Virus record (IMG/VR): IMGVR_UViG_3300032236_000207
Location: 1 to 62,845 of that record
DNA: 62,845 bases
Source: a virus
Lineage: Duplodnaviria > Caudoviricetes
Reading direction: 5' to 3' (one strand)
In this document: positions 47,056 to 61,207 of the stretch, in pieces
Position numbering within the stretch: position 1 is the stretch's first letter
How the letters are laid out: each line of letters starts with the position of its first letter
The notes under the pieces: generated by a model
What the model was told of the DNA's origin: nothing
The model's database searches: none
The model's input: only the letters and a program-made list of their open reading frames with translations
Program-made: the position numbers and the translations under genes

Positions 47056-47663
47056 TCTTGCTCTTTTGTAGACACGTCGTCGTCCACATGTTCATTTTCT
47101 GGCGTTTTCTGTACATATTCGTCCAGTTCGTCCAGCTCATCGACCAAATTTGGCTTGATATCTGTAACATCCGCGTTCATCAGGCGTTTTATGCGCTCCT
47201 TGATGCTGTTTTCTAGCGAACTAGACGTGGTGTGGTGGATTGTTATCTCGCTGCGCTCAGTAAAGAGGCCAATATCTGAATGTTTTCCAAGCAGCTCGAG
47301 CGCCTTGAGCTCAATTTTTGGGTCGCCGCTGTCTGCTAATGTTATAAGTTTGTTCGTTATGAAATTACGAGCTTGTAATTGGTCACTGAACGCCTGAAAG
47401 TCAAATTGTTTTATTAGTACAGACGCGGCTTTTGCCTGCGCTGATACAGATACTGTCTTAGGGGTGGAGGACTTTTCCGCTCCTGTTATTAACTTACCCG
47501 CTTGCTCGAGCGATTTGTCGTCGTAATCTAATGAACCATCGAGTTGCTCAATGAAATCTGCAGTGTTGACAGCAATAGCTACGCTATCCGCATGAGTCTT
47601 AGGTTGCTCATCGGACAGGTCAAACGGAATTGGATGCTCCGCAGTTGGCTCAATATTTAACAT
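47052..47663 (-). CDS. Putative terminase small subunit
   Basis: Directly upstream of TerL; LKALELLGK..GLF motif. Confidence 0.65.
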   Translation of the reverse strand: MLNIEPTAEHPIPFDLSDEQPKTHADSVAIAVNTADFIEQLDGSLDYDDKSLEQAGKLITGAEKSSTPKTVSVSAQAKAASVLIKQFDFQAFSDQLQARNFITNKLITLADSGDPKIELKALELLGKHSDIGLFTERSEITIHHTTSSSLENSIKERIKRLMNADVTDIKPNLVDELDELDEYVQKTPENEHVDDDVSTKEQE

Positions 47664-47687
47664 GTGCACTTCCAAAAAAGAAGGGAT

Positions 47688-47785
47688 GTTGGTGACGGTC
47701 TATTTGCACTTATGGGTTTCCCCAGAGTAATCCGGTGTACCAACCCTGATCCCGACCTTGCGGTCTTGTAGAGATTTTCACCAAC
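47688..47785 (-). ncRNA. Candidate structured RNA upstream of the terminase operon
   Basis: GUUGGUGA/UCACCAAC closing stem; two GNRA hairpins (GACC-GCAA-GGUC, UGGG-GAAA-CCCA). Confidence 0.45.
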
Positions 47786-47812
47786 GGGCCCGACTATATC
47801 AGAAAAATATAT

Positions 47813-48061
47813 AGGGGTGGGGGGGGTAGCAAAATAAAAAGTGACGGGGGGTGTTTCCTAGACTTGATACTTAAACTTGCCGATTGGATACTTAAAGGGG
47901 GTGGGGGGTTAACTCTGCGTTTTTTGGAAAAACGAAATCGAACGACATATTCCCGTAAATATACTACGGTGTTATATAAATCTTGGGACTCCTAATCGGG
48001 TGTGCAACACATAGTGTAGCGGGCCCCACCTCCCTTTGCTGGGTTTTCGGGGGCATGGGGG
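47813..48061. other. Non-coding G-tract region, candidate packaging start/genome end
   Basis: Several G4-G8 runs and a GATACTTAAA direct repeat between the divergent late and early blocks. Confidence 0.35.
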
Positions 48062-48126
48062 TCAATCGTGCTCGAATCTAACAAATGTTATGCCATCCCC
48101 CTACTTTATTTTTGTTCAAAGAACGC

Positions 48127-48155
48127 TTGCATTTTGTGGTGCGATTAGATATAAT
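48127..48155 (+). promoter_or_regulatory. Early sigma70 promoter
   Basis: TTGCAT-17 nt-TATAAT. Confidence 0.7.
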
Positions 48156-48234
48156 GAGAACATGCCAAGCAACAATGCTTTGCATACCTAACATAAGTTA
48201 GGTTTCATGTTAGTTCTTTTTACAGAGGTTTATT

Positions 48235-48756
48235 ATGGATACAGTTCACGTCGTTAGTCCCGCTTTCCCTATGACTGCAGTGGCGGGTGCAGTTGCTAAC
48301 TTGACCGAGTCTCGCACTCAACTGGTTAAGGGTATCGGCAAAATCGGTGCTTTGATATCGGGATATTCCCTAGCGTTAGACCAAGCGTTTGACTTGGTAG
48401 ATAACCAAGGGCAAACCACTACCAAGTGGTTCGACTTGAAGGGTGCACTAAAGAAGGGCATCAAGGGTGAGCGTGCTAACTTTGTGGCAGATATGACACA
48501 AGCGGGTTATGGTAAGTCTACCATTGACGTCTACTGGCAACGAGTCAAGGAAGCCTCGGGTTATGTGACTGCGGGTAACCGAGTCAAGGCTGGCGCTACT
48601 GATGTTGACGCGAAGACACTCGCTGAATTGAAGACTATGGTAAACCGTATCTTCAAAGCCGAAGAGGAAGGCGTGACATGTGACGCTAGCGATATCAAGC
48701 ACTTGCTGATTGACGCTTACACAGCACTGGGTGGCAACGATAGCGACTTAGGCTAA
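48235..48756 (+). CDS. Early hypothetical protein
   Basis: 173 aa, GAGG RBS, own promoter and downstream hairpin. Confidence 0.75.
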   Translation: MDTVHVVSPAFPMTAVAGAVANLTESRTQLVKGIGKIGALISGYSLALDQAFDLVDNQGQTTTKWFDLKGALKKGIKGERANFVADMTQAGYGKSTIDVYWQRVKEASGYVTAGNRVKAGATDVDAKTLAELKTMVNRIFKAEEEGVTCDASDIKHLLIDAYTALGGNDSDLG

Positions 48757-48763
48757 TCAACGG

Positions 48764-48781
48764 ACGGGGGGAAACCCCCGT
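48764..48781 (+). terminator. GAAA-loop hairpin (terminator or processing site)
   Basis: ACGGGGG-GAAA-CCCCCGT; the T tract comes only after the adjacent palindrome. Confidence 0.45.
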
Positions 48782-48815
48782 TCTAACAAATGTTAGTTTT
48801 TAATCGGAGAATGTT

Positions 48816-49019
48816 ATGAAACCCTCTTACAAGCATGATTGTGAAAAGTGCAAATTTGTCGGCAAAATCTTTCGTGCTATGAATTTGGAAGGCACAAAGA
48901 AAAAAGCGACTGATGTTTATCAGTCTTGCGAAGTAGGTGGAAGTCGTTATATCCTCCGTTGTTCTAGTCAAGGCTCGGACTACATCACTACCAATAATTT
49001 GGAGATGTATATCTGCTAA
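48816..49019 (+). CDS. Small hypothetical protein
   Basis: GGAG RBS; HDCEKC motif. Confidence 0.65.
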   Translation: MKPSYKHDCEKCKFVGKIFRAMNLEGTKKKATDVYQSCEVGGSRYILRCSSQGSDYITTNNLEMYIC

Positions 49020-49038
49020 CCCCTACTGACTTATCCAC

Positions 49039-49062
49039 AGCCCGCCTTGAGCGGGCTTTTTT
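49039..49062 (+). terminator. Rho-independent terminator
   Basis: AGCCCGC-loop-GCGGGCT followed by TTTTT. Confidence 0.8.
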
Positions 49063-49140
49063 GCGTCTGATGACACCTAACAAATGTTAGCGTACCACTA
49101 AGTTATTTTTGTTCAAAGAAATTTAGCCCGAATTTTTAGA

Positions 49141-49238
49141 ATGCCAGTTCTCTGGGCGGCGTTAGGGTTGAAGTTTGAGATTGTCATCGCAGGGCATAGT
49201 TTGGCGACAATCTTTTAGGATGCCAGTTCTCTGGGCGG
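49141..49238 (+). repeat. 19-bp direct repeat ATGCCAGTTCTCTGGGCGG, two copies
   Basis: 49141-49159 and 49220-49238, both preceded by TTTTAGR. Confidence 0.85.
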
Positions 49239-49614
49239 GTTTAGGCTCGAACTAACAAATGTTATGCTTTGGGCAGGTAATGTTACGCAATGTTACGTGA
49301 CCCCTCCCCGCAAACCCGCATGAAACCTAGATTGTTATATGTTATATTGTTACACGACATATATAGCAGTCCACCAAAATGGATTTGGTCATCAAGGTCA
49401 GCAAGTGCAATTCATACCACTCAAACTCATTTTGGTGGGATATATATATATTCTCATAACATTATAACTTTATAACAATTAGTCATTTTTTGGCGTGGTT
49501 AAGCCATTTCCTTTGTTACACTTTATTTCCAAAACCCGTAACAATACCCTATTTTCATAACATCCCACTAACAAAGAAACATAACAATCCTCACTCATGC
49601 TCCGTCCTAAAAAT

Positions 49615-49643
49615 TTGACAAATCTGTAAAATTGTGGTATAAT
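49615..49643 (+). promoter_or_regulatory. Consensus early sigma70 promoter
   Basis: TTGACA-17 nt-TATAAT with extended TG. Confidence 0.88.
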
Positions 49644-49744
49644 AAGGTATGGAAATCAAAATAAAACCACAAAACCTAACAACTGTTAGGAAATGTAACA
49701 ACCCGAAGGAGAGCACATCATGCGCCCAAGCACGCCCTAAATAT

Positions 49745-49773
49745 TTGACAAATCTGTAAAATTGTGGTATAAT
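49745..49773 (+). promoter_or_regulatory. Consensus early sigma70 promoter (identical duplicate)
   Basis: Same 29-mer as 49615. Confidence 0.88.
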
Positions 49774-49859
49774 ATAACATGGGTTCGGGAGTTTTTCTCA
49801 GCCCATTCCAAATCTAACAAATGTTAGTTTTTCAACCCTTCAACCATACAAAGGTTTTT

Positions 49860-50057
49860 ATGTCCTCAGATTCACGCATCTACTTCATGCTTATGACAAT
49901 AATCGCAACTGCCTTTATTGTGTTCGGTTTTACTGGCGATGGTTACATCCACAACATTGCGCTAATCCTTGGTGGTCTCTACTTTGGTCACTTGATTACC
50001 GAAGCCCTCAACTATGACGAGTCAGACAAACTCGCAGACAGCCACTTGGAGGTATAA
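49860..50057 (+). CDS. Small two-TM membrane protein
   Basis: Two hydrophobic segments; stop lies in a palindrome (alternative start 49821). Confidence 0.6.
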   Translation: MSSDSRIYFMLMTIIATAFIVFGFTGDGYIHNIALILGGLYFGHLITEALNYDESDKLADSHLEV

Positions 50058-50060
50058 CAA

Positions 50061-50291
50061 ATGTTAGATAACGACTGGAAAGAATGTATCGACTGCGGTG
50101 ATGATGTTCACATCTCCCGTTGGTCTCTTGGCTACCGAGTGTGCCTCTTCTGCGGTGAAGACCGAGCCGTCGCAGAGCGTAGTTCATGGTGCATTGTGCA
50201 AGAGTACGGCAAGGGTAACTATCAGTATATTACCCCTACTAGCGCAACCACAACACTCAAGCAGACTAACCAAAAAGAACTGAGAGGGTAA
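50061..50291 (+). CDS. Small zinc-finger-like protein
   Basis: CIDCG..CLFCG; start lies in a palindrome. Confidence 0.7.
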   Translation: MLDNDWKECIDCGDDVHISRWSLGYRVCLFCGEDRAVAERSSWCIVQEYGKGNYQYITPTSATTTLKQTNQKELRG

Positions 50292-50295
50292 GGGT

Positions 50296-50457
50296 ATGAA
50301 AAAATTTAATGTGACTGTGGTGTTTTCTTACATCGACACCATCGAGGTGGAGGCTGAGAACAGAGAGGATGCCAAGGCTATGGCGTTTGACTTGTTCGAC
50401 GAGGAGCGCATGGTGCGCTGTGATGGTGAAGTGTTAGAAGTTGAAGAGGAGGCATAA
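50296..50457 (+). CDS. Small acidic protein (DpnD/PcfM-like pattern; not in ORF track)
   Basis: MKKFNVTV..IEVEAENREDA; stop lies in a palindrome. Confidence 0.55.
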   Translation: MKKFNVTVVFSYIDTIEVEAENREDAKAMAFDLFDEERMVRCDGEVLEVEEEA

Positions 50458-50460
50458 CAA

Positions 50461-50643
50461 ATGTTAGAAATTACATACACCGATATGTTCTTGTTCGCAT
50501 GGGCAAGCGTGATGACTGCCCTGTATTTCAAGGCACGACACGAGGAGCGCATGGTCAAAGTTGTGTTCATGCACCTTATAGAGAACCCCGAAGCCCGAGA
50601 GCAGATGATTGCCCAGTATGAAAAGACAAGGAGCGAAGCATGA
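50461..50643 (+). CDS. Small hypothetical protein
   Basis: GGAGG RBS; start lies in a palindrome. Confidence 0.6.
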   Translation: MLEITYTDMFLFAWASVMTALYFKARHEERMVKVVFMHLIENPEAREQMIAQYEKTRSEA

Positions 50644-50831
50644 ACGACAAAGATATCCAAGACGCAACCCGCCTAGTTCAGTATGCGGAGTTAGACATAG
50701 CGAAATACCTACAAAGCCCTGCCGACTTCATGGTTGTGGAGTGGCTTGAGGGTGTGCAACAAGCCCTGACCGACGCATTACAAATGTTAGGTTCGAACCC
50801 AATCCCTTTGTTGGAGAGCGATGATGAGTAA
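50640..50831 (+). CDS. Small hypothetical protein
   Basis: AAGGAG RBS, ATGA overlap. Confidence 0.6.
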   Translation: MNDKDIQDATRLVQYAELDIAKYLQSPADFMVVEWLEGVQQALTDALQMLGSNPIPLLESDDE

Positions 50832-51009
50832 AGACCGAAAGATAGCAGAGTTGGAGGCCACGATTAGGTCACTGCTCAAAGCCATCGACGGGTACAAGCG
50901 AGACCTCACATACGAAACAAACTGGAGGCTCATGTCCGCATGTATAAGTGCGAAGGAAGTTTTAAACAAACGAGAGGTAACAAATGTTAGAAATCGTAGT
51001 ACGAATTAA
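50821..51009 (+). CDS. Small hypothetical protein
   Basis: GGAG RBS. Confidence 0.5.
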   Translation: MMSKDRKIAELEATIRSLLKAIDGYKRDLTYETNWRLMSACISAKEVLNKREVTNVRNRSTN

Positions 51010-51175
51010 GAATGTATACGGAGTGGACAAGGTTTACCCAGTCTCTCCCAATGCTCACCTATTTGCCGACATTGCAGGCACAACCACGCTCAGACCATCC
51101 GACCTCAAGGCAATCCAAGAACTAGGGTATCGGGTAATCGTAGAGCAACCCGTATGGCAATCGGTGGAGGTATAA
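50984..51175 (+). CDS. Small hypothetical protein
   Basis: KNVYG..YPV..FADIAGTTTL; start and stop both lie in palindromes. Confidence 0.65.
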   Translation: MLEIVVRIKNVYGVDKVYPVSPNAHLFADIAGTTTLRPSDLKAIQELGYRVIVEQPVWQSVEV

Positions 51176-51177
51176 CA

Positions 51178-51669
51178 ATGTTAGATGACACAACCAACCT
51201 CACACCTGAGCAGAAACTAAAACTGCTCATTGCCAACCGACCTTGGGAAACCGAGCCCAACAGCGCAAAGTGGGAAGACAAACTCACGGGATACAAGTGC
51301 CGAATTATGCGACACGGCGACCTCGGTCACCTCTGTGGGTATGTGGGAATACCTAAGACGCACACGCTATACGGCAAGCACTACTCAGATGACGAGGTGG
51401 CAGACATTCGAATTCACGGTGGGCTGACGTTCTCAGAGGCAGATGAAGATGACAAAGACACATGGTGGTTCGGGTTCGACTGCTCACACATGGGAGACCT
51501 GAGCCCAAAACTACTCATGGTGCTCGTGGAGAAGGACAGATACAGGTTCGACCGAACCGAGCAATACCGCACATGGGACTATGTGGAGAACGAAGTCCGT
51601 GAGTTGGTGCGCCAACTGCGAGACGAGGATTCCCTAGCAAATCAAATACCAAACTTTAGGAGACCCTAA
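51178..51669 (+). CDS. Conserved phage hypothetical protein
   Basis: GHLCGYVG..HGGLTF..WFGFDCSH; start and stop both lie in palindromes. Confidence 0.75.
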   Translation: MLDDTTNLTPEQKLKLLIANRPWETEPNSAKWEDKLTGYKCRIMRHGDLGHLCGYVGIPKTHTLYGKHYSDDEVADIRIHGGLTFSEADEDDKDTWWFGFDCSHMGDLSPKLLMVLVEKDRYRFDRTEQYRTWDYVENEVRELVRQLRDEDSLANQIPNFRRP

Positions 51670-51672
51670 CAA

Positions 51673-51915
51673 ATGTTAGATAAAGAAGCACAGCAAGCCT
51701 TGGTTGCATTGATGCAGACCAAGCAGAACTTGGAAGACCAAGTATTGAAGTCAATGCGTAGCCCTGACCTGACAACCGAGCAACTCATAAAACTACGCAA
51801 GAAGTATCTAGGGTTCTTAGAGAAGTTGCAAGAGGTTGAGGATGAACTCCAAGCACACGAGCGGGGCACACCCGAGGAATGGATAGCCATGTGGAAGGGG
51901 CAGAAAGATGAGTGA
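51673..51915 (+). CDS. Coiled-coil hypothetical protein
   Basis: AGGAG RBS; start lies in a palindrome. Confidence 0.6.
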   Translation: MLDKEAQQALVALMQTKQNLEDQVLKSMRSPDLTTEQLIKLRKKYLGFLEKLQEVEDELQAHERGTPEEWIAMWKGQKDE

Positions 51916-52123
51916 AGAAGCAGAGAAGCAAGAGCCTGAGTCTGGATTTTTTAGTCGTGAAGCAATGAAAGCCCATAGCGATTTTCATCCACAACAACGC
52001 CCTTGGGTTGGGCTGACGGATGAGGAAATGCTTGAGTGCAATATGGATGGTGACATCATGATTGACCGAGAAACAGCCAAACGAAATGTCGAAGCCAAGT
52101 TGAAGGAGAAAAATTATGACTAG
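51908..52123 (+). CDS. Small hypothetical protein
   Basis: WVGLTDEE...EAKLKEKN pattern. Confidence 0.6.
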   Translation: MSEEAEKQEPESGFFSREAMKAHSDFHPQQRPWVGLTDEEMLECNMDGDIMIDRETAKRNVEAKLKEKNYD

Positions 52124-52271
52124 GTATTACGTCACAGGATGGAGTGCCCGATTCGGGAATTGGCACGCCGAGGTATTCGAGTGCAAGAGTATGGAGTTTG
52201 CGAAGAAGCGATTCTTGGCGAGTTACCCCACGCTCAAGCAGATAAAAGTCTACCCGCTACGGGACAACTAA
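52116..52271 (+). CDS. Small hypothetical protein (not in ORF track)
   Basis: AAGGAG RBS; 51 aa. Confidence 0.5.
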   Translation: MTRYYVTGWSARFGNWHAEVFECKSMEFAKKRFLASYPTLKQIKVYPLRDN

Positions 52272-52299
52272 AACCTAACAAATGTTAGAAAGGTAAATT

Positions 52300-53319
52300 A
52301 TGGGATACGCAACAGTAATGAATGTGCCACGGGTAACAACCTACACCGAGGCAAAGAACCTACACGACAGCATCAAGCCGATTCGTGGGCGAGACCCCGA
52401 GGTGCGACCCTTGGGTAACCGACGCGATGCCGACTCGTATTGGGTACGCATGGATGGGGACGACGTAGTGTTCATGCTCTACAAATCCCCCGTGATTACA
52501 TACAAGCCTGACGGGGCGGTGGTACTCACACCTGATACATATAGCACAGTATCTACACACCAATTCTTTCACAGGGTTCTTGGGGTGGGGGCAAATGCGT
52601 CTAGACAGCACTCCGTAATCACGCTCGGGGACAAACGCTACACGATTCGTGGCAAGGACAAACTCACGCTCAGACAAGTGGATGGGAACTGGTCTTGCGT
52701 CGAGGGGGCGAAGGCGCAGTTCGCGTGGCATTTGGACAGGCGAGAAGCAACAAATGTTAGGTCTCGCTACAAAGAATTTGTCACCTACTTCAAAGGCATG
52801 GTGGCTTTACGCACCGAGGACTTCACGCACCACTACGGTAATACGCACTACAAGGGAATTGCCGTGTCTCTGAATGAGTTACAAAATGCGTTTGGTGTGG
52901 AGACTATCGAAAACGAGAACCCATTCTTGCACTCACGAAATGACCCTGATTCAATCATTGGCAACATGCGGTGGATACAAGACTTGCCACAACGCCATTA
53001 CAACTATGGCACGCAGAGAGCGGATGAGTATGGGGCGGGCATAGTGAATTTTCTAGACCTGATTAGGAGCGACCAACCTGAGGACACCAAGACCACGAAC
53101 TTCTACAAGGGTGCGTTGGCGGTGCTGATGAGCGGTGACCGCCTATATCTACGAGGACAAGACGATAACACCTACATCGTTAAGGCTACGCCGATAGTGA
53201 AAGCCTTGGACACCGTGTTACTCAAAGCCCATGCGAGTCAGGTATTGGTGCGCAAAGAGTTACCGATTGGTTCGGTGTCCAAAGGGGCATACGACAGGTG
53301 GTTACCTGAGAACACCTAA
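52300..53319 (+). CDS. Hypothetical protein
   Basis: 339 aa, flanked by palindromes on both sides. Confidence 0.75.
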   Translation: MGYATVMNVPRVTTYTEAKNLHDSIKPIRGRDPEVRPLGNRRDADSYWVRMDGDDVVFMLYKSPVITYKPDGAVVLTPDTYSTVSTHQFFHRVLGVGANASRQHSVITLGDKRYTIRGKDKLTLRQVDGNWSCVEGAKAQFAWHLDRREATNVRSRYKEFVTYFKGMVALRTEDFTHHYGNTHYKGIAVSLNELQNAFGVETIENENPFLHSRNDPDSIIGNMRWIQDLPQRHYNYGTQRADEYGAGIVNFLDLIRSDQPEDTKTTNFYKGALAVLMSGDRLYLRGQDDNTYIVKATPIVKALDTVLLKAHASQVLVRKELPIGSVSKGAYDRWLPENT

Positions 53320-53356
53320 CAAATGTTAGGTGTAGGAGATGAGTGTGCCTAAATAT

Positions 53357-53385
53357 TTGACAAATACCTTATTTTGTGGTATAAT
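53357..53385 (+). promoter_or_regulatory. Consensus early sigma70 promoter
   Basis: TTGACA-17 nt-TATAAT; shares CCTAAATATTTGACAAAT and TTGTGGTATAAT with 49745. Confidence 0.88.
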
Positions 53386-53467
53386 TAAATGGTAGGCAAA
53401 AAAGTATTTTGTGTTAGTTTTTTCAACCAAATCCTAACAACTGTTAGGTATATCAGAGGAGTTAGAT

Positions 53468-54532
53468 ATGTCAGAAGTTAATTTCGGTAAGACCATTACC
53501 TTGAAGCAAGCATCCAATTTGATTCGCACGAACCCCACAACTCGGTTCTTATTGCGAGGTGAACCCGGAATTGGAAAGTCTTCCCTGTTGGAGAGTATTG
53601 CTAACGCATTGGGTTATGACCACGCATACATTGACGTGCCTAACCTAGACCTTGGCGATATTGCGATGCCCGTGATTGACCACGAGACCAAGACAACTAG
53701 GTATTACCCTAATGCTCGGTTCAAATTGCATGAGAAGAAACCCATCGTCATCATGCTAGACGAGTATACGAAGGGCGCAGACCCAGTTAAGAACATGCTC
53801 CATCCCATGCTCGAGAAGGCGAACCCACGACTCGGTGACATCTCTTTGCATGAGCAGAACATTGTGTTCATGACGGGTAATCTATCGACAGACGGGGTGG
53901 GTGACTCACTCAAGGCGCACTCTATGAATCGTGTGGTATCTGTAACTATCCAAAAGCCTGATGCAGAACAGTGGATTGAATGGGCTATCGGCAAGAGTAT
54001 CGAGCCTGAGGTGATTGCTTGGGTGAATCGTTTCCCACAAGTCTTGGCAAGTTACACGGACGGTGGACAGGCGGATAACCCGTATATCTTTAATCCTAAG
54101 AAGCCTATGACTGCGTTCGTATCTCCACGCTCACTCGAGACGGCCTCTAACATTGTTAGGTCTCGCAAAGAGAATGATGCCGACTCAGTAATCGCGGCTT
54201 TGACTGGTGCTATTGGCGAGTCAGGTGCAAGAGATATGCAAGCGTATATCGAATTCTCAGACCAACTGCCAACATGGGAAGCGACCATCAAAGACCCTAA
54301 GAATACCAAGATACCTACAAGTGCAGGTGCTTGTGCGATTGTGGTGTTCGGTGCGATTGCCCGTGTGGAGAAGGACACCATTGATGCGTTCATGGAATAT
54401 CTCGAGCGATTCGATGCCGAGTGGCAAGCCGTGTTCGCTATCAACATAGCGAAGTCACAAGCCAAGCAGAGCATTGCGTTTAGTGCGAAAGCCTTTACTG
54501 CATGGGTTGCTAAGAACCAAGACTTACTCTAA
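53468..54532 (+). CDS. MoxR-like AAA+ ATPase
   Basis: GEPGIGKS Walker A, IMLDE Walker B, TGN sensor 1, SPRS sensor 2. Confidence 0.85.
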   Translation: MSEVNFGKTITLKQASNLIRTNPTTRFLLRGEPGIGKSSLLESIANALGYDHAYIDVPNLDLGDIAMPVIDHETKTTRYYPNARFKLHEKKPIVIMLDEYTKGADPVKNMLHPMLEKANPRLGDISLHEQNIVFMTGNLSTDGVGDSLKAHSMNRVVSVTIQKPDAEQWIEWAIGKSIEPEVIAWVNRFPQVLASYTDGGQADNPYIFNPKKPMTAFVSPRSLETASNIVRSRKENDADSVIAALTGAIGESGARDMQAYIEFSDQLPTWEATIKDPKNTKIPTSAGACAIVVFGAIARVEKDTIDAFMEYLERFDAEWQAVFAINIAKSQAKQSIAFSAKAFTAWVAKNQDLL

Positions 54533-54542
54533 GAATTCTTAG

Positions 54543-54758
54543 ATGCTAACTACATCACAGAGTAATGGCACTCGTGCCCACCTTGGGCACAGGTATTGGG
54601 TGCAATGGGTAACCGCCACCAACCGAGACAAGGAGATGGTGGTGCTTGGCTACTGCGTTCGTGATATGGACAAGTTCGACAAGAACATTGTGTTCGAGCA
54701 CGAGAGCAAGATTGTGTGCGACAAGATTGCAGGTTTACTTAACGAAGGAGAGAGGTAA
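54543..54758 (+). CDS. Small hypothetical protein
   Basis: 71 aa, bounded by palindromes. Confidence 0.5.
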   Translation: MLTTSQSNGTRAHLGHRYWVQWVTATNRDKEMVVLGYCVRDMDKFDKNIVFEHESKIVCDKIAGLLNEGER

Positions 54759-54761
54759 CAA

Positions 54762-55982
54762 ATGTTAGAAGAAAGACGTGTTCAGAAGTCGAAGATTAGT
54801 TTGATGCGTAACCCTAAGTTCGCATTGCTATCAGGTATCTTGATGGTTGGTCGTACTAAGGTAGTGGATAACTTACCTACTGCGTGCACCAATGGTAGAG
54901 ATGAATCGTATGGTCGCAAGTTCGTCAAAGAACTGCGTGACCAAGAGTTGAACTTTGTGGTGGCGCATGAGAACTATCACAAGATGTATCGACACTTGAC
55001 TACATGGCGCAAGTTGCACGAGATTGACCACAGGTTAGCGAACAGCGCATGTGACTATGTAATCAACATCCAGTTGAAAGACCTAGACCCTAACGAGACA
55101 CTCATAGCCATGCCCCGATACAAAGACGGCAAGGTGATGGGCTTAGTTGATGAGCGATTCCGTGGCATGAACGCCAAGGAGGTGTTCGACATACTAAGAG
55201 AGGAGAAAGAGGAAAGAGGTTCTGGCGGTGAGGGCGAGGGTGGTAGCGGTGCGGGTGATGGTGACCCTGAGTTCGATGACCACGACTGGGATGGTGCTCA
55301 GGAGATGACAGCCGAGGAGAAGAAAGACTTGGCACGAGAGATTGACCAAGCGATTCGTCAGGGCATCATGGCACAGCAGAAGATTGCGGGTAGCGGAGCA
55401 GGTGGACTAGACCGTGAGTTGCAAGGACTACTTGAGCCCAAGGTTAACTGGCGTGAGGTATTGCGTGAGTTCGTTAAGTCAACATGCAGTTCTAAAGATG
55501 CATCGTCATGGCGCAGAGTTAATCGTAGGTTCTTATCCACAGGTGTTTACATGCCGAGCCTTATCGGTGAGAAGGTAGGTCACTTGGTTATTGCTATCGA
55601 CACATCGGGTTCGATTGGCGGTGATGAGTTGGCAGACTTCTTATCTGAGGTTAAGGGTATCGCAGAAGAGGTAAACCCTGAGTGCGTGGACTTACTGTAT
55701 TGGGATAGCGAGGTAGCGGGGCACGAGACTTACTCGGGTTCTACTGCGTCAGATATTCCTAACTCTACCAAGCCCAAGGGTGGCGGTGGCACAAGCCCGT
55801 CTTGTGTATCAGCGTATCTGAAAGAGAAGAACATCCAGCCCGAGTGCGTGATTGTTCTAACCGACGGGTATGTTGGTGGTGATTGGGGTAGCGAGTGGAC
55901 TGCGCCCGTGATGTGGTGCATCGTGGGTGGGTATGACGGCGATGCCGACAACGGCAAGACTATTCACATCGACAGCAACTAA
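54762..55982 (+). CDS. HExxH metallopeptidase-like plus VWA domain protein (DUF2201-like)
   Basis: TACTNG, AHENYH, DTSGS MIDAS, GGGT, LTDG. Confidence 0.85.
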   Translation: MLEERRVQKSKISLMRNPKFALLSGILMVGRTKVVDNLPTACTNGRDESYGRKFVKELRDQELNFVVAHENYHKMYRHLTTWRKLHEIDHRLANSACDYVINIQLKDLDPNETLIAMPRYKDGKVMGLVDERFRGMNAKEVFDILREEKEERGSGGEGEGGSGAGDGDPEFDDHDWDGAQEMTAEEKKDLAREIDQAIRQGIMAQQKIAGSGAGGLDRELQGLLEPKVNWREVLREFVKSTCSSKDASSWRRVNRRFLSTGVYMPSLIGEKVGHLVIAIDTSGSIGGDELADFLSEVKGIAEEVNPECVDLLYWDSEVAGHETYSGSTASDIPNSTKPKGGGGTSPSCVSAYLKEKNIQPECVIVLTDGYVGGDWGSEWTAPVMWCIVGGYDGDADNGKTIHIDSN

Positions 55983-55985
55983 CAA

Positions 55986-56219
55986 ATGTTAGGAGTGAGT
56001 ATGGCAGTAATAGACCCAGTGGAATGGTTTCAGATACGACACCCCACGCAGTATTGGGGAGACCCTTTCACTCATGGGATTGTCGAGGACAAGGGGACAG
56101 GTGAGTGGGTAGTGGTGAAGAAAGAAATGCTTGGCGATTCACTGACAAAGATATCAGAGATAGCCCGAGCACCGACCCGTGAAGGGGCGATTGGATTTTT
56201 AAAACTTATAAGGGGATGA
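55986..56219 (+). CDS. Small hypothetical protein
   Basis: Start at 55986 (palindrome) or 56001 (AGGAG RBS). Confidence 0.55.
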   Translation: MLGVSMAVIDPVEWFQIRHPTQYWGDPFTHGIVEDKGTGEWVVVKKEMLGDSLTKISEIARAPTREGAIGFLKLIRG

Positions 56220-56343
56220 TGATGAGTTCAGATTTATTAGATGAGTACTGCATGCAAGAGTACGGGCACACCGATTGGGAAATGTCGTGGGATGAGGACG
56301 GCAACTTGATTGTGAAGTTTTATGAAAACCAAAGGGAGGAAGT

Positions 56344-57198
56344 ATGAGTATTAGTTCATCAGCGTTGTTAGTGGAGTTGAATATCAGCGTATGGCCTGCG
56401 TCTAAGTTAGACAGAGAAATAACGGACAAGGTCAATACAGATGCGTCAGCAGTCAGAGGTGCGAGTCAGACCAAGAAGAATCTATTTGCGGGGACTAGCC
56501 TACGCAAAGACATATCAGACTTCGCCGCGCGTGTTCGTCTGTATCACAACAAGCACACATTACCTTGGGCAGACAAGGGTGAGCGCATGTTGCCGACCAA
56601 GTTATTCATGGAATACAAGCAGACCATGAACGGGTTCGAGCAGACATTCAACATGATGTGCAACAACTTCTTTGTGGAGTATCCGCGTCTTGTCGCAGAA
56701 GCACCTACTAACCTAGGCACTATGTATAAGGCAGAGGACTATCCCGACCTAACAGATGTTAGGTTGAAGTTCGGTTTCAAGCGAACAGTAAAGCCCGTGC
56801 CTGAGGCGGGCGACTTCCGACTGGACATACCTGCGTATGACTTGGATGAGATGCGAGCCGAGTTCGAGAAGCAACACGAGACTAAGTTAGCCGAGGCTAT
56901 GCGTGAGCCGTGGGAGCGTCTGCATAAGATGTTAGTAGGAATGTCGGAGAAGTTGACTGATGTTGAGGGTGATGATTCCAAGAAGCGTTACCACGACACA
57001 CTTATCTCTAACCCCATAGAGTTGTGTGGACTGCTAACCAAACTGAATGTGACCAACGACCCCAAGTTGGAGGAAGCACGACGTCAGTTGGAGTTGACCA
57101 TGCTTGGCGCAGACATTGAGAGTATTAAAGAAGATGCACAGTCTCGCAGTGCACTCAAGTCCAAGGTAGATGCTATCTTGGGTAAGTTCGATTGGTAA
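56344..57198 (+). CDS. Conserved helical protein accompanying AAA/VWA modules (DUF3150-like, tentative)
   Basis: TLPW..G.R.LP, DYP, FPV-like KPVP motifs; GGAGG RBS. Confidence 0.6.
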   Translation: MSISSSALLVELNISVWPASKLDREITDKVNTDASAVRGASQTKKNLFAGTSLRKDISDFAARVRLYHNKHTLPWADKGERMLPTKLFMEYKQTMNGFEQTFNMMCNNFFVEYPRLVAEAPTNLGTMYKAEDYPDLTDVRLKFGFKRTVKPVPEAGDFRLDIPAYDLDEMRAEFEKQHETKLAEAMREPWERLHKMLVGMSEKLTDVEGDDSKKRYHDTLISNPIELCGLLTKLNVTNDPKLEEARRQLELTMLGADIESIKEDAQSRSALKSKVDAILGKFDW

Positions 57199-57224
57199 CT
57201 AAGAAATCTTAGAAAGGGAATGAT

Positions 57225-58091
57225 ATGAGTGAATCACAGGCAGTAAGTATGAATTTGTTTGCGTTGAGCAATGTTGAGTTGCACCCCGATGTATCCAAGA
57301 AATTGGGTAATGAGACGATAGGCGACCCGCCTAACGATATGTGCAGATTGGTAATGCACTTGGCTATGGCAAACCCATTGTGGCGGTTTGTCGTTACCGA
57401 TACTATGGGAGACCATAGACCCGTAGGGTTCGGTGTGATTGATAGTGGCGAGGTGATTGGCAAGATTGGTAGGCAGTATTACCGAGGGGACTACAAACTC
57501 TCGCTAACCAACGACCGCATTAGCAATGCTAGAGAACGCACATCCTCATACCGCACGTCAGATGTGGACAAGGCTATCCTCATGGCGAAGAAGATGTTCT
57601 TTCGTCTCAAGCCCAACGAGCGTATCGAGAAGGCGTATGAGCAAGCCCACAAGGTGATGACTAACCAACTCTACGATAAGCAGAGGGAGCATCGCTATGC
57701 CGAGCGGGAGACCGAGAGTCTTGCGGTTAAGTTCATCATGGGAACTGGCTTTCCTTTGTTCTTGGGGTATGTAAACGGCCTGCCTGAACATGAGAAGAAG
57801 CCCATACTAGCGAAGATGGAGCAGGCCAAGAAGTTCAAGCAAGACATGATGACCATTGAAGCAATCAAGGATAGGTTCGGTGGTGAACACACAGCCCTAA
57901 TCATCAAAGATGAGGGTAAATACATGGTGAAGATTGGACAAGATGTTCAGATTTACGATGATAATACGCTCCCCGAATCCATGCGGGGTAAGTTGGGTAT
58001 GTTGAAGTTGGTTGAAGCCGAGCACTTCATATCTAGCGTGGGGTGTCGTATCAATGATGAGATATTCGTAGTATTAACAGAGGAGACCTAA
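57225..58091 (+). CDS. Hypothetical protein
   Basis: 288 aa; stop lies in a palindrome. Confidence 0.75.
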   Translation: MSESQAVSMNLFALSNVELHPDVSKKLGNETIGDPPNDMCRLVMHLAMANPLWRFVVTDTMGDHRPVGFGVIDSGEVIGKIGRQYYRGDYKLSLTNDRISNARERTSSYRTSDVDKAILMAKKMFFRLKPNERIEKAYEQAHKVMTNQLYDKQREHRYAERETESLAVKFIMGTGFPLFLGYVNGLPEHEKKPILAKMEQAKKFKQDMMTIEAIKDRFGGEHTALIIKDEGKYMVKIGQDVQIYDDNTLPESMRGKLGMLKLVEAEHFISSVGCRINDEIFVVLTEET

Positions 58092-58094
58092 CAA

Positions 58095-58295
58095 ATGTTA
58101 GAAGTAAAACTAGACAACCATCCGACCACAAGAATGTTTCCACGCACATTAGAAGAAGCGTATCCCAAAGATTACGTCAACAATTTCTTTGAGGGCCCGT
58201 TTTACAGTGCTCCACATATCAGCGAATACTCAGTCTTGCTTGCATTGATAGCAGTGTTCAGTATGTTGGGCTATGCAATGTGGAGGTATTTCTGA
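58095..58295 (+). CDS. Small membrane protein
   Basis: TTRMFPRTLEEA motif plus C-terminal TM helix; start lies in a palindrome. Confidence 0.65.
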   Translation: MLEVKLDNHPTTRMFPRTLEEAYPKDYVNNFFEGPFYSAPHISEYSVLLALIAVFSMLGYAMWRYF

Positions 58296-58395
58296 TGTTA
58301 GAAACAATCGCATGGATAGTATTTCTAATGGGGCTAGGCGCAGTCGTAGTGGTTGCCGTAGGACTAGCAATAGTTTATATAAGTAGGGAGGACAT

Positions 58396-58755
58396 ATGAA
58401 TGACTTTTTTTGGGGCGCAGGTATAAGCGCAGTAATTTGGACATTGATTAGTTTTGTTTGGGGGTTCGTGGAGGAACATAAGAAAGACAAGGCTAACAAA
58501 GTTAGGGAGAAGTTGGCGTACCACGGCACTGCACTGGTATCCCCACAAATATCCCCCAGTTTTGGCAAGGTAGAGCCACAAGTGCGGATTGGGATGATGA
58601 ACGCAATGAACGGCAGACTGCTAGAGGTTGCATCTACTACGCTAAACAGACACGGGGATAGAGACTATGTAGTCGAGCACTACATCATTGATGAGACCAA
58701 GCCATTGTCGGAGGAGATAGCGGTGGTGATGCTTATGAAGGGGATGAGTAAATGA
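58396..58755 (+). CDS. Membrane-anchored hypothetical protein
   Basis: GGAGG RBS, N-terminal TM helix. Confidence 0.65.
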   Translation: MNDFFWGAGISAVIWTLISFVWGFVEEHKKDKANKVREKLAYHGTALVSPQISPSFGKVEPQVRIGMMNAMNGRLLEVASTTLNRHGDRDYVVEHYIIDETKPLSEEIAVVMLMKGMSK

Positions 58756-58931
58756 AAGAGCACGAAATGATTTCTGCGATTACTCTGCGTGACTTCTTTG
58801 CGTCTCAGGCTATGCAGGGTGCTTTAGCAGGTATCGCTACTAGAGCGGAGGTTATTCGCTACTCAGAGTTAGCGGGACTAGCGTACGAAGTAGCGGACGC
58901 AATGATGGAAGCGAGAGATGAGGAAGCGTAG
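58752..58931 (+). CDS. Small conserved phage protein (not in ORF track)
   Basis: TLRDFFASQAMQG..AYEVADAMMEAR pattern. Confidence 0.65.
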   Translation: MKEHEMISAITLRDFFASQAMQGALAGIATRAEVIRYSELAGLAYEVADAMMEARDEEA

Positions 58932-59391
58932 CAAATACAGACCCAAGGGAGTTCTGCCCGACCCGATGACTTGGTTGTTGGCGGGTATGAAACCTTTCAA
59001 AGAAGTGCCTTTTAGCGTAGACCTACGTATCAAGAACCACGGTGCTATGGATGCGCTACGCAGAGGCATTGCTACCAAGGATGACATGGATGTTCTGATT
59101 GGTGCGTTCAACATGACCGAGGCATGTATCCGACTGCGACCTGAGTTGGGTGCGGACTGGGCAGATGAAATCAAGGCGGGGCAAGATGCGCTCTATGCAG
59201 TTTCTAAGCGAGGTGCAAATAGTATGCGGTTCATTCTCAAGGCGAGTGAACTTGTGGCTATGAACCTAGTCATGGAACTACATGATGTGCAACTAGACCA
59301 AACAACAGTAAGCGACTTGGAGAAGGCTATGGATATTGTGAAAGAAGAACATAGATTGAAGAAGATGCGACCAGTCAAGGAGAAGGTATGA
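58918..59391 (+). CDS. Hypothetical protein
   Basis: MRKRSKYRPK start, 157 aa. Confidence 0.7.
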   Translation: MRKRSKYRPKGVLPDPMTWLLAGMKPFKEVPFSVDLRIKNHGAMDALRRGIATKDDMDVLIGAFNMTEACIRLRPELGADWADEIKAGQDALYAVSKRGANSMRFILKASELVAMNLVMELHDVQLDQTTVSDLEKAMDIVKEEHRLKKMRPVKEKV

Positions 59392-59651
59392 CACAAGATG
59401 AAATCATTGAGATGGCTAGAGAGTCTGGGTTAGAAACACAAGATGGGTTTTCTGAATCTGTTTTTTACTTTGCCAAACTGGTAGCAGACAAAAGAGTTGA
59501 AGGCATGGTAGTAATGACCCCTGACGAATTCAAAAGCGTATGGGATAAAGCGCAAGCAGAAGAGCGTGAGGCGTGTGCGCTTATTGGCGATGGCTATCAC
59601 GATGAAGAAGCAAACTGTGGTGATTTAATCAGAGCAAGGGGACAAGCATGA
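59388..59651 (+). CDS. Small hypothetical protein (paralog A)
   Basis: MTQDEIIEMAR..FAKLVA..ERE..IRARG. Confidence 0.7.
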   Translation: MTQDEIIEMARESGLETQDGFSESVFYFAKLVADKRVEGMVVMTPDEFKSVWDKAQAEEREACALIGDGYHDEEANCGDLIRARGQA

Positions 59652-59923
59652 CACAAGATGAAATCATTGAGATGGCTAGACAGGCTGGTTTTGATGTCAA
59701 AGAATGGGGTGATGAAACATTGGTTCGTACCGTACACAGCAAGGGTTACTTTGTTGTCATCAATCAAAAACTTGAAGCCTTTGCCAAACTGGTAGCAGAG
59801 AAAGAGCGTGAGGAATGTGCCAAGATTATTTATGACTCTTGGGAATCAACAACAGCGGGTGAAGGCATACCCGAAGATTGGCTTTTGACTTTGGCAGAAC
59901 TAATCAAAGCAAGGGGAAACTAA
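59648..59923 (+). CDS. Small hypothetical protein (paralog B)
   Basis: First 33 nt identical to paralog A. Confidence 0.7.
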   Translation: MTQDEIIEMARQAGFDVKEWGDETLVRTVHSKGYFVVINQKLEAFAKLVAEKEREECAKIIYDSWESTTAGEGIPEDWLLTLAELIKARGN

Positions 59924-60222
59924 TGCAGTCAGTTCATTCAACAGGCTACATGGTGCGTAGCATATACAAAGGAACATATGAAAAAACAGGAAGAGATGAT
60001 GGAACAGGATACGTCTTGTATCGAACAAGAACCCTTGCACAACAACACATCGACAAGTATTGCGAAGGCAAAGCGTTCGTCGTCAAAGTCAGGGTTGCGA
60101 TTACGCCGACTGAGTCAAGCCGAAATGAACGCGCATTGGCCATTCACAAGGCTAGACCCAAAACTATTTCCGAAAAACTTAAAAACAACTTCTTTCCCTA
60201 CTGAAGAAGAGGAAGCACTACT

Positions 60223-60423
60223 ATGACAACAGGAATTGAAGAACTTAAACCAATAACAAAACGCAAGGGGCGAGGCCTTGGTAAGAAACCTGCGCTTTTT
60301 TGCACGAGTTTGCGTCTACCAAAGGAGGTGATGGATTACTTCAACACTAACTTTCCGTATACAAAGCAAGCCAAGATGAGAGAAATTCTTACTGAATACA
60401 TTAACCAACAAACAAGGAGTTAA
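60223..60423 (+). CDS. Ribbon-helix-helix-like DNA-binding protein
   Basis: RGLGKKP basic arm then TSLRLPKEVMDYF..MREIL strand-helix-helix pattern. Confidence 0.55.
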   Translation: MTTGIEELKPITKRKGRGLGKKPALFCTSLRLPKEVMDYFNTNFPYTKQAKMREILTEYINQQTRS

Positions 60424-60424
60424 C

Positions 60425-60949
60425 ATGGTTACTAAAAAGAAACGCACAAGCAGAACTAAGACCGCACAGATTCGTGCTTACATAGCAGAGAATCCCGAAG
60501 CGACACCGAAGACCATTTCGGGGCTATACGGCATCCCGCTCAAGTCCGTGTATCAGATTACATATCAGATACGCAAAGAGAAGAAGCCCGTCATCGTCAC
60601 TGCAACACAGGCAGCCATCGCTAATAGGCTAGGGGTATCAACGCAGGAGTATGTCAAGAGAGTTTACGAATTGACGAGAGGGCGTGACCGACGCCACCCC
60701 GTTACAGGTAAGCGTCTCATGCAAGGCGCAGATATTGTGGCAACACATCACACCGACATGGTCAACCATCCTCCGCACTACAAGCAAGGGGGCATCGAGA
60801 CTATCGACTTCATCGAGGCGAAAGAGTTGGACTACAACCTTGGCAATGTTGTGAAATACATAACACGAGCCGACCACAAGGGCAACAAGTTGGAAGACTT
60901 GAAGAAGGCACAGTGGTATCTCAACCGAGCCATTGAAAAGTTAAACTGA
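60425..60949 (+). CDS. DUF3310/SaV-like protein with N-terminal HTH-like region
   Basis: DMVNHPPHY..IETIDFI..GNVVKYITRA..EDLKKAQWYL. Confidence 0.8.
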   Translation: MVTKKKRTSRTKTAQIRAYIAENPEATPKTISGLYGIPLKSVYQITYQIRKEKKPVIVTATQAAIANRLGVSTQEYVKRVYELTRGRDRRHPVTGKRLMQGADIVATHHTDMVNHPPHYKQGGIETIDFIEAKELDYNLGNVVKYITRADHKGNKLEDLKKAQWYLNRAIEKLN

Positions 60950-60985
60950 TACTAGGGGGTAACATAATTGGAGGATGACCTAGCC

Positions 60986-61086
60986 GATAGATGTGACGGT
61001 GTCTTTCTCAAGCAGAGTCCCCCTTAGTTGATTTGCTCTGCTTGAACCTTAAGCGTGACGGGGGGCACGCAATCTATCAGCCCCCC
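60986..61086 (+). ncRNA. Candidate pseudoknotted structured RNA
   Basis: GAUAGAU/AUCUAUC, UCAAGCAGAG/CUCUGCUUGA and GCGUG/CACGC stems; G6 loop complementary to downstream C6. Confidence 0.5.
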
Positions 61087-61113
61087 AACCTAACATTTGT
61101 TAGGGTAAGTCCT

Positions 61114-61136
61114 AGCCACCTTCGGGTGGCTTTTTT
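61114..61136 (+). terminator. Rho-independent terminator closing the early region
   Basis: AGCCACC-TTCG-GGTGGCT followed by TTTTT. Confidence 0.88.
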
Positions 61137-61146
61137 ACGTCCGTAG

Positions 61147-61174: not shown

Positions 61175-61207
61175 GCCCTTCTGAAAATAAATTGGAGGGT
61201 TAGTGGT

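Follow-up and report, generated by a model that had tools for sequence, protein, structure and literature searches.

Phages are already known to carry multi-copy sets of operators, among them the stoperators of Cluster A mycobacteriophages, the dyads of Cluster O mycobacteriophages and the PeSL cassettes of T4-type phages. In Cluster A phages such as L5 and Bxb1, tens of stoperators of 13–14 bp lie in transcribed regions, often in short intergenic gaps; related genomes have different sets, which track the repressor, a copy is found close to the repressor gene, and binding stops elongation as well as initiation (PMC9283540; PMC6550527; here and below, statements on published systems refer to the accessible parts of the sources cited). 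In the present work we analysed an uncultured phage represented by the complete IMG/VR virus record IMGVR_UViG_3300032236_000207 (62,845 bases, estimated to be 98% complete; the whole record is referred to as the window), in which a palindrome of the form (AC)CTAACA-NN-TGTTAG(GT) is repeated through the early region, frequently at the junction of two genes. This motif is real, its occurrence is far from random, and it has been maintained in evolution. Our preferred explanation, to which we give roughly an even chance of being correct, is that it is a dyad DNA site read by a phage-encoded homodimer, most likely the product of the first early gene, w7 (48235–48756, plus strand; 173 aa), and that it marks the early transcription units.

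Like the stoperators, its closest working analogues, the motif is present as many copies of a short site in transcribed regions, here 27 in 13 kb. Stoperators are, however, asymmetric, lie in one orientation and are read by a monomer with two domains, whereas the motif is a dyad and is free in orientation unless it is used as a start; they are also spread over the whole genome of temperate phages, whereas the motif is restricted to the early units of a phage in which no integrase was found. The w7 product has no detected similarity to stoperator repressors, though no direct comparison was run. The Cluster O mycobacteriophages carry more than 30 copies per genome of the 17-bp dyad TGTTCGG-NNN-CCGAACA, mostly away from promoters, for which the authors predicted binding by a dimeric protein and a role other than the control of initiation (PMC4351075). 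In symmetry and number of copies these dyads resemble the motif, and they are no better explained, but they occur genome-wide and not in stop or start codons, few if any of them lie at insertion points, and the accessible parts of the report give neither spacing types nor a candidate protein (PMC4351075). The PeSL cassettes are repeated regulatory motifs that border small non-essential early genes, and close relatives differ by insertions, deletions and replacements that are explained by exchanges from copy to copy (PMC2839356). A PeSL combines a sigma-70 promoter with a terminator stem-loop, whereas the present repeat is only 14–18 bp and the promoters are separate from it: the motif region contains only four or five promoters and two terminators, apart from the copies, and the junction copies carry neither and do not fold. 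The operator of Aca11, AGTATATAACA-AA-TGTTATATACT, at which a dimer represses its own operon, also has half-sites two bases apart and the identical core TAACA-AA-TGTTA (PMC12658196). In that system one or two sites lie over a promoter, as against about 27 through 13 kb, and Aca11 is a helix-turn-helix protein, whereas no such fold was found in w7.

Literature searches with the motif words and on palindromes at phage start codons found no matching description in what was covered, which included few subscription journals. Conserved inverted repeats that are bound by the phage repressor are present in the early region of the Streptomyces phage phiC31.

Results

The motif comprises two half-sites of 6–8 bp around a 2-nt centre, and all copies are confined to 48.08–61.10 kb. 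The 16-mer CCTAACAAATGTTAGG gave 32 matches at up to three mismatches, both strands counted, against a mean of 0.34 and a maximum of 2 in 100 shuffles, and a 13-mer at up to one mismatch matched 19 times forward and once in reverse, all within 48079–61102, its reversed-pattern control giving none. A relaxed count yields 27 copies, 12 of which lie at gene ends (seven supplying both a stop and a start, two a start only and three a stop only), five inside open reading frames (ORFs) and ten in intergenic DNA. The initial annotation of this DNA had noticed that a TAA-CAA-ATG word ends one gene and opens the next, and the sequence together with the ORF list confirms this at seven places (50055, 50455, 51173, 51667, 54756, 55980 and 58089), the junction at 51173 being one base shorter (TAA-CA-ATG). 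Its description of the copy at 53317 as a stop only and of that at 50978 as a start only likewise agrees with the ORF list, and products starting at junction copies do begin MLD, MLE or MLG; for ORF 55986, an in-frame ATG at 56001 with a better Shine–Dalgarno sequence is an alternative start. To that description can be added that the symmetry extends to the centre, giving half-sites CTAACA/TGTTAG with a 2-nt centre, that two copies, at 54530 and 57200, have swapped inner bases (CTAAG..CTTAG), and that further copies, spaced about every 0.5 kb, lie at gene junctions or are recoded into long genes. Where a copy lies within an ORF, it is read in the only frame that is open (xTA ACA xAT GTT AGx) or else carries TTA in place of TAA.

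The same architecture, with lineage-specific versions of the motif, recurs in about 100 related phage contigs from metagenomes. They were drawn from IMG/VR, where the DUF2201 protein as query retrieved 40 loci (39–94% identity), and a further 60 loci were reached via the first early gene and 27 via its remote counterpart. The versions are CTAACA-NN-TGTTAG (the window), CTAACA-N-TGTTAG, CTAACATGTTAG with no centre, CTGACA-AA-TGTCAG and CTAAGA-AA-TCTTAG. Genomes are nearly pure for spacing, the counts of 2-nt and 1-nt copies being, for example, 21/0, 19/0 and 18/0 in some and 0/23, 0/20 and 0/18 in others, with few mixtures. More distant kin have unrelated palindromes of 17–20 bp (e.g. TTTCGGGCAGCTGCCCGAAA) located at the corresponding intergenic positions, just after stops and 20–35 nt before the next start.

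The motif type is also followed inside genes. In orthologues of gene 56344–57198, a comparison in which some rows are near-copies of each other, the peptide LTML is written CTA ACA ATG TTA in 8/8 rows from 1-nt-type genomes and in 0/11 of the other rows, where TTG ACY ATG YTN codes the same residues; the peptide LTDVR holds a 2-nt site in 6/9 rows of the 2-nt type and the CTGACA form in the IMG/VR locus L029. These codon choices point to selection acting on the nucleotide word inside conserved genes, following the motif type of the genome.

The zero-spacer site CTAACATGTTAG was seen in L132 and L133 (IMG/VR loci), in 7–8 copies downstream of a gene like x14, the counterpart of w7 in 1-nt genomes. 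Locus L029 has two site types together, CTGACA-AA-TGTCAG in 8 copies and CTAACA-N-TGTTAG in 11. In two distant lineages, L039 (5826–5960) and L044 (6130–6310), the palindromes differ, and the same word, GATACCAGTAA, follows 6–8 nt after the palindrome; this word may be a common promoter-like element.

The motif block is a defined transcription domain. On the plus strand, sigma-70 consensus promoters (12/12) lie at 49615–49643, at 49745–49773 and, before the AAA ATPase gene, at 53357–53385, and a putative first early promoter, TTGCAT-17-TATAAT, was read by eye at 48127–48155, where it is under the scan threshold. Intrinsic-terminator-like hairpins with a T run are located at 49039–49067 and at 61114–61141, the latter closing the motif-bearing unit, and immediately behind it, at 61147–61174, is the promoter of the replication module (11/12, 16-nt spacer), which is motif-free downstream. 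When sites with at least 11/12 matches were taken as promoter-like, with the presumed start 7 nt after the −10 hexamer, 60 of 71 such sites in 33 records had a motif copy centred 32–83 nt after the presumed start, although the records include near-duplicates and the 60 cases are thus not independent. This promoter-leader rule is independent of the local motif type. All 11 exceptions are the 16-nt-spacer promoter behind the terminator, where the copy is mostly 48–93 nt upstream and in three cases farther, at least 204 nt. The leader copies of the window lie at 48188–48201 (first early gene; centre ATAA, 7-bp arms), 49676–49689 (centre AACT, no ATG), 49814–49827 (its ATG opens ORF 49821–50057) and 53434–53447 (centre AACT). 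Copies flank the promoter of the first gene at a distance of about 110 bp from each other, and the corresponding distances are 118 and 138 bp for the promoters at 53357 and 49745, respectively.

Two other repeats occur in this part of the window. The word TTATTTTTGTTCAAAGAA, at 48104–48123 and 49104–49121, lies at the same distance after two motif copies, and its instance at 48104 precedes the first promoter. A direct repeat of about 25 nt (…TAGRATGCCAGTTCTCTGGGCGG) is present at 49134–49159 and 49212–49238, in non-coding leader DNA that separates the terminator at 49039 from the half-site array described below.

The motif fits a DNA site for a dimer, since its arms are constant within a genome and it is symmetric to the 2-nt centre. 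The length of the spacer, too, is fixed per genome. What is conserved is the arms and the outermost bases of what would be a hairpin loop (A...T), the centre being variable: among 170 copies of the 2-nt type from 23 genomes that are not used as starts (their ATG opens no ORF of at least 40 codons), the centre is AA in 62, TT in 52, AT in 31 and TA in none, and among such copies of the 1-nt type from 17 genomes it is A in 78 and T in 95. It follows from these pooled counts that the orientation of the motif is free unless its ATG is used; the strong forward bias in the window is attributable to ATG use and descent.

An alternative which we think improbable, though it merits serious consideration, is that the motif acts in RNA, as a CUAAC-loop-GUUAG hairpin of the early transcripts that would be a processing or stabilizing signal, a translational operator holding the AUG, or a boxB-like site for loading an antiterminator encoded by the first gene. 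Such a role would suit the symmetry of the arm changes between lineages and the presence of all copies in one transcribed block, with a copy at +32 to +83 in every early leader and, after the first gene, terminator-like hairpins, an order that resembles pL-nutL-N-tL1 of lambda. Leader copies would indeed fold, at −6.8 to −11.7 kcal/mol. Junction copies, however, show no excess of stability: at −0.6, −1.2 and −0.6 kcal/mol, they are matched by 48, 15 and 16 of 200 shuffled sequences. The position in the leader is that of the lambda nut/boxB element, but here the loops vary and the arms are fixed, most copies lie outside leaders and the junctions are unfolded. Conservation of the arms and of the first and last loop bases with free centres (AA, TT, AT, AC, GA), a spacer of fixed length per genome and clustered isolated half-sites all speak against an RNA element, as does the palindrome of the distant kin, which lies upstream of the start codon and not over it, and no Rfam family was matched in 47500–61400.

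A non-coding array at 49250–49650 contains 14 isolated half-sites (35 per kb, compared with about 3 per kb genome-wide); an inverted repeat, CCACCAAAATG...CATTTTGGTGG, and an (AT)n tract lie between six TGTTA on the left and six TAACA on the right. The densest 400-bp windows in 15 TAACA-type records hold 8–16 half-sites each and lie just downstream of the w7 homologue in each record whose positions were checked. Over 49250–49650 the window shares 72–80% nucleotide identity with L015, L011 and L019, across motif types. Because isolated half-sites are unable to pair and yet are densely packed, recognition of duplex DNA is favoured, and taken together our results point to a motif recognized as double-stranded DNA by a symmetric phage-encoded dimer that acts on early transcription.

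The array itself looks like an origin or a large protein-assembly site, and the same protein–DNA recognition could serve another purpose, the copies being iterons, centromere-like or genome-organizing sites for replication initiation, DNA entry or compaction, with the array as their main assembly point and any effects on transcription secondary. We regard this, too, as an unlikely but respectable alternative. It would account for the large-scale dyad order of the array around the (AT)n tract and inverted repeat, for its preservation at 72–80% identity across motif types and for its position next to the gene of the candidate binder, as in plasmid Rep-iteron or Par systems, and the more than 30 Cluster O dyads, lying mostly off promoters, have likewise been given a non-initiation role (PMC4351075). 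Against it stand the restriction of the copies to the early transcription units, which end at their terminator, the strict promoter-leader rule, and the location of the primase-helicase and the replication module in the motif-free part of the genome.

Our candidate for the dimer is w7, whose product is the best candidate for the motif-binding protein, judging from comparisons among relatives. Of the protein families that occur in three or more close relatives, a clean split by motif type is seen only for w7 and for x14, which takes its position in 1-nt genomes; the other type-restricted families are only a 60-aa hydrophobic protein and a doubtful 47-aa ORF, and all core families are 86–100% identical across motif types. 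Remote homology links the w7 and x14 proteins along their whole length (hhalign 96.3%, E 1.5e-9). The family is abundant, w7 matching more than 540 protein clusters in metagenomes, but w7 itself carries no annotation. On a tree built from 49 w7 proteins, 3 changes suffice to explain motif type, as compared with 9.3 for shuffled labels. The residue five before an invariant W (…T-I-D-V-Y-W-Q-R-V-K…) is T or S in 36/36 proteins from 2-nt genomes and N in 10/10 from 1-nt genomes, canonical w7 proteins have a turn one residue shorter at this spacing-tracking site, and in the two 0-nt genomes (L132 and L133) there is a different helix, ...NPSVPGKRIRD... replacing ...NPSVxWTRVR.... Switches of motif type thus appear to co-vary with the first early gene.

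The w7 protein is predicted to be all-helical, and modelling supports a homodimer. Its self-pairing score was 0.46, the best control reaching 0.00; the mark applied is reached by 20/30 proteins solved as pairs and by 1/23 solved as single chains. At least 61% of the contacts agree between runs, and the partner pLDDT is at least 77. In sequence searches w7 gave nothing above the cut-off in Pfam or PHROGs and nothing below E 0.1 in a PDB-sequence profile search, and Atlas gave leads only, below 0.9, to DUF3102 and a plasmid partition protein. Other repressor-like proteins were sought among 20 small early ORFs, none of which matched a helix-turn-helix family above the cut-off. The protein of 60425–60949 is a DUF3310 protein with a faint N-terminal HTH_23 match.

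Several observations weigh against the assignment to w7 and against the regulatory role proposed. The association of residue and spacing (46/46 rows) amounts to 2–3 independent contrasts on the tree (sign test, p 0.5), and w7 lies in the most mosaic part of the genome; for these reasons the link is suggestive only, and w7, as a member of the most variable left module, could simply be co-inherited with motif type. In the 32.5-kb record of L029, which has two site types, only one w7 homologue was found, with one TGA in the match. The w7 models match no helix-turn-helix or other DNA-binding fold in Foldseek or VIA: the whole-protein model (pLDDT 77) gave a best Foldseek E of 0.6 and a best VIA Z of 6.3, to a designed protein, and residues 20–118 (pLDDT 90) a best VIA Z of 6.1, to a chorismate-mutase-like three-helix bundle. 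The Pfam signals are sub-threshold only, to the integrase N-terminal SAM-like domain in 8/26 w7 members (best E 0.07), and the segment concerned is the one that holds the spacing-tracking helix. With regard to orientation, 8/9 of the AA/TT non-start copies in the window have AA, a bias absent from the pooled set, and a protein-bound hairpin would be another explanation of the symmetric arm changes between lineages. Finally, the copies lie downstream of promoters and not over them, and that the outcome of binding is repression, rather than activation or a non-transcriptional role, is a guess.

A host transcription factor might be the reader, the differences between phage lineages then reflecting their hosts, but we consider this quite unlikely. 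The 5-4-5 layout of the 2-nt type, a 14-bp dyad, is that of the boxes of the CRP/FNR family and of the Listeria PrfA box core, and the geometry suits a dimeric winged-helix regulator. The 12-mer TAACAAATGTTA also occurs in PrfA papers. The CRP/FNR geometry, however, fits the 2-nt type only and neither the 1-nt nor the 0-nt type; centres of 1 and 0 nt and other arms are found among phages with core proteins about 90% identical, the type tracks a phage gene, and one genome holds two types.

The initial annotation had further suggested that the identical junctions form a cassette-like array with attC-like cores, at which whole small genes could be inserted, deleted or swapped. Integron attC sites have two pairs of inverted boxes (R''-L'' ... 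L'-R') and form an imperfect palindrome of roughly 57–141 bp. The likeness holds at the level of the core words: ACCTAAC-AAAT-GTTAGGT at 53314–53331 fits RYYYAAC/GTTRRRY literally in its outer 7-mers, the array is unidirectional, its sites following small genes at their 3′ ends, and a site can include the stop codon. It does not extend further. The left words of most junction copies are different (TATAAC, GGTAAC), copies within genes and promoter leaders follow no cassette logic, and, as had been recognized from the outset, the second box pair and the length of attC are missing, every copy being a single dyad of 14–18 bp, with no extrahelical bases and with flanks that are coding or unrelated. 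A recombinase had not been noted in the window, and profile searches agree: in the 98%-complete genome PF00589 (Phage_integrase) and PF00239 (Resolvase) gave 0 hits at E≤1, the control run with the PF00589 search giving hits in 14/14 genomes, and RecT, ERF and YqaJ gave no hit at the same limit. An AAA_24 match was discarded as only the ATPase P-loop, below the cut-off.

Movement of genes was nevertheless evident in the relatives. The clearest case is w19 (51178–51669, plus strand; phrog_2164, MazG-like), which is bounded by two motif copies and is found in four slots with different neighbours, namely in the window, in L010/L047, in L011 and in L026/L036/L029; in three genomes motif copies bound it. 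The blastn match between w19 and L010/L047 covers 51173–51683, exactly from flanking copy to flanking copy, and the right half-site of w19 (ATGTTAGA…) is retained, whereas its spacer and left half-site are of the resident genome's kind. Five junction sites mix half-sites of two types, among them CTGAC-AAAT-GTTAG, twice in L029 (once at the 5′ end of w19), and CTAAG-AAAT-GTTAG in L016 and L031; these hybrids are one substitution away from pure sites, so that they can also be explained by point mutation. At least six different gene sets occupy the slot that follows 55980. Contig variants lack 55986–56347 or 50296–50457, with one end inside a copy, which for the loss of 50296–50457 is the right end (variants were read from assembled contigs, and short joints with sides of 21–29 letters at 85% likeness were not trusted).

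The annotation had proposed comparing the breakpoints of such events with the motif. Match ends are enriched near copies, 102 of 268 blastn ends from 21 relatives lying within 15 nt of one, whereas such positions make up 8.6% of the region, but the enrichment is small when set against gene ends: after collapsing, 20 of 88 boundary clusters are at copies, and at gene ends 16/33 clusters carry the motif compared with 25/74 of all gene ends. Adjacency with the neighbour in the window has been lost in 125/177 informative comparisons at motif junctions and in 163/176 at other junctions, so that motif junctions are broken less often than others, and several gene-flux events are flanked by a copy on a single side or on no side at all. 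All gene borders in this region show high gene flux. The idea of exchange through identical junctions thus draws some support from relocated genes and hybrid sites, but the adjacency counts speak against preferential breakage at motif junctions. We conclude that the motif serves, at most, as a crossover point from time to time and not as a dedicated recombination site, and that its regulatory role, which the annotation had named as the alternative that would refute exchange, is better supported as the primary function than cassette exchange. That the copies are dedicated attC-like sites, at the palindrome centre of which a site-specific enzyme cuts and rejoins to move single genes, is in our opinion very unlikely; besides the w19 arms, the hybrid sites, the loss of 50296–50457 and the literal match at 53314, it could appeal to the weak similarity between w7 relatives and the N-terminal, DNA-binding domain of tyrosine recombinases, but none of the five recombinase families sought was found, and the cassette-recombination explanation is weakly supported. 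Hairpin promoters of the N4 style, considered because of the kinship of the DUF2201 protein with N4-like phages, gained no support: the 2126-aa virion protein gave no polymerase signal and matched no solved polymerase, and the early promoters are of sigma-70 consensus.

The remaining copies, all but the last on the plus strand, are distributed as follows. The first (CTAACAAATGTTAT, 48078–48091) lies about 80 nt upstream of the first early promoter. A copy at 48783–48796 comes right after w7 and a G+C-rich hairpin, an intergenic copy at 49077–49090 follows the terminator-like hairpin, and one at 49252–49265 forms the left edge of the half-site array. The junction copies at 50054–50067 (stop of 49821–50057, start of 50061–50291) and 50454–50467 (stop of 50296–50457, start of 50461–50643) are followed by a copy inside ORF 50640–50831 (50777–50790), which is in the junction frame with TTA replacing TAA, by the start-giving copy at 50977–50990 (start of 50984–51175) and by the junction copies at 51172–51184 (TAACAATGTTA, 1-nt centre; stop of 50984–51175, start of 51178–51669) and 51666–51679 (stop of 51178–51669, start of 51673–51915). 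An intergenic copy at 52275–52288 precedes gene 52300–53319, within which lies another at 52747–52760 (CAACAAATGTTAG, read A-T-N-V-R) and the stop of which is in the best copy, with 8-bp arms (53314–53331), about 70 nt upstream of a promoter start. The AAA ATPase gene contains a copy with a 1-nt centre at 54147–54159 (S-N-I-V-R), which is conserved in relatives, and has its stop in the variant copy CTAAGAATTCTTAG at 54529–54542. The junction copy at 54755–54768 links 54543–54758 to the DUF2201 gene (54762–55982), relatives having an extra gene at this point, and that at 55979–55992 links the DUF2201 gene to 55986–56219 and is the left edge of the variable slot. Gene 56344–57198 holds a type-specific copy (56749–56762, L-T-D-V-R) and is separated by the variant copy CTAAGAAATCTTAG (57199–57212) from 57225–58091, whose stop is shared with the start of 58095–58295 in the junction copy at 58088–58101. 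Two members are doubtful, a weak copy with a 1-nt centre inside 58396–58755 (58493–58505) and TAACATGGTTA at the junction of 60223–60423 and 60425–60949 (60420–60432). The last copy, at 61088–61105 on the minus strand, is a perfect 16-mer and the sole one with a reversed centre, and lies directly before the terminator.

The motif block forms part of a set of plus-strand genes that runs from 48.0 kb across the end of the record to 6.8 kb and comprises small early genes, the AAA ATPase (53468–54532), the DUF2201 metallopeptidase/VWA protein (54762–55982) and, behind the terminator, a replication module that encodes an SNF2 helicase and a DUF927 primase-helicase. Structural genes occupy the minus strand from 7.0 to 47.7 kb and encode the terminase, portal, head protein, ejection protein and the large polyvalent protein of 2126 aa. 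Cultured phages gave no close DNA match, a megablast of 50000–58200 against 50,697 phage records finding nothing. The tblastn matches of the DUF2201 protein are all below 60% identity and mostly from N4-like phages, and the relatives of the ATPase/DUF2201 pair are likewise below 60% identity and mainly N4-like.

A number of other features of the genome were recorded. The 2126-aa virion protein (7019–13399, minus strand) has an LPD39 domain just under the Pfam cut-off, and its C-terminal half matches PHROGs of 2400–4600-aa proteins, one of them labelled DarB-like antirestriction. Gene 2345–2794 has sub-threshold Mu Gam-like matches, and a PDB relative of the protein of 2796–3695 was sought and none found. 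At 50061–50291 a 76-aa protein with two CxxC pairs, a zinc-ribbon-like pattern with faint Pfam matches only, starts at a junction copy and is conserved in 16 loci. The region 59025–59906 has a summed contig depth 4–7 times that of its flanks in four metagenome runs (e.g. 202–329 as against about 45 in X1) and many alternative joints, and includes the tandem paralogues 59388–59651 and 59648–59923, which seem to be part of a module common to many other phages or strains. A second tandem pair of small paralogues, family w44, lies at 62111–62446 and 62443–77, across the end of the record, with near-identical ribosome-binding regions (GGAACCAAAATGAACGAAG).

Discussion

From the site anatomy, its lineage types, its maintenance inside genes and its place in the early leaders we infer both that the w7 product binds the motif and what that binding would do. 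Host RNA polymerase would transcribe the early units from the consensus sigma-70 promoters, each early promoter leader carrying one strong copy and the last copy lying just before the terminator at 61114. Once made, the w7 protein would bind the sites and throttle or shut off early transcription, including its own, by a roadblock or by looping as repressors of the stoperator type do. The site happens to contain TAA and ATG, and for this reason would have been folded into stop/start overlaps in this lineage. As a by-product, the many gene boundaries that share 14 identical bases may sometimes serve as crossovers when co-infecting relatives exchange small genes.

It is possible, though we hold the view only tentatively, that these phages represent a previously undescribed 'junction operator' system in a large group of uncultured freshwater phages, in which the dimer of a w7/x14 family with no detected match among solved folds would read CTAACA-type half-sites that switch in spacing (0, 1 or 2 nt) and in arms from one close relative to another, and in which crossovers inside the sites, with no dedicated recombinase, would move small early genes between genomes of different types. 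In such a system the sites would be written into stop/start overlaps and, by synonymous recoding, into coding sequence.

In relation to the operator sets already described, the present one would differ in three respects. Firstly, a binding site is fused with translational punctuation, one 14-bp word being a stop, a start and a putative protein-binding site, and as a consequence the first residues of many proteins are fixed as M-L-E/D/G. Secondly, the locus offers a clean test of whether shared border words drive mosaicism, to which the answer is weaker than the PeSL model suggests. Thirdly, phages that are about 90% identical provide a natural series of specificity switches, comprising spacings of 0, 1 and 2 nt and three arm variants, and with one candidate spacing-tracking residue in hand this series would make the co-evolution of a regulator with some 25 scattered sites directly testable.

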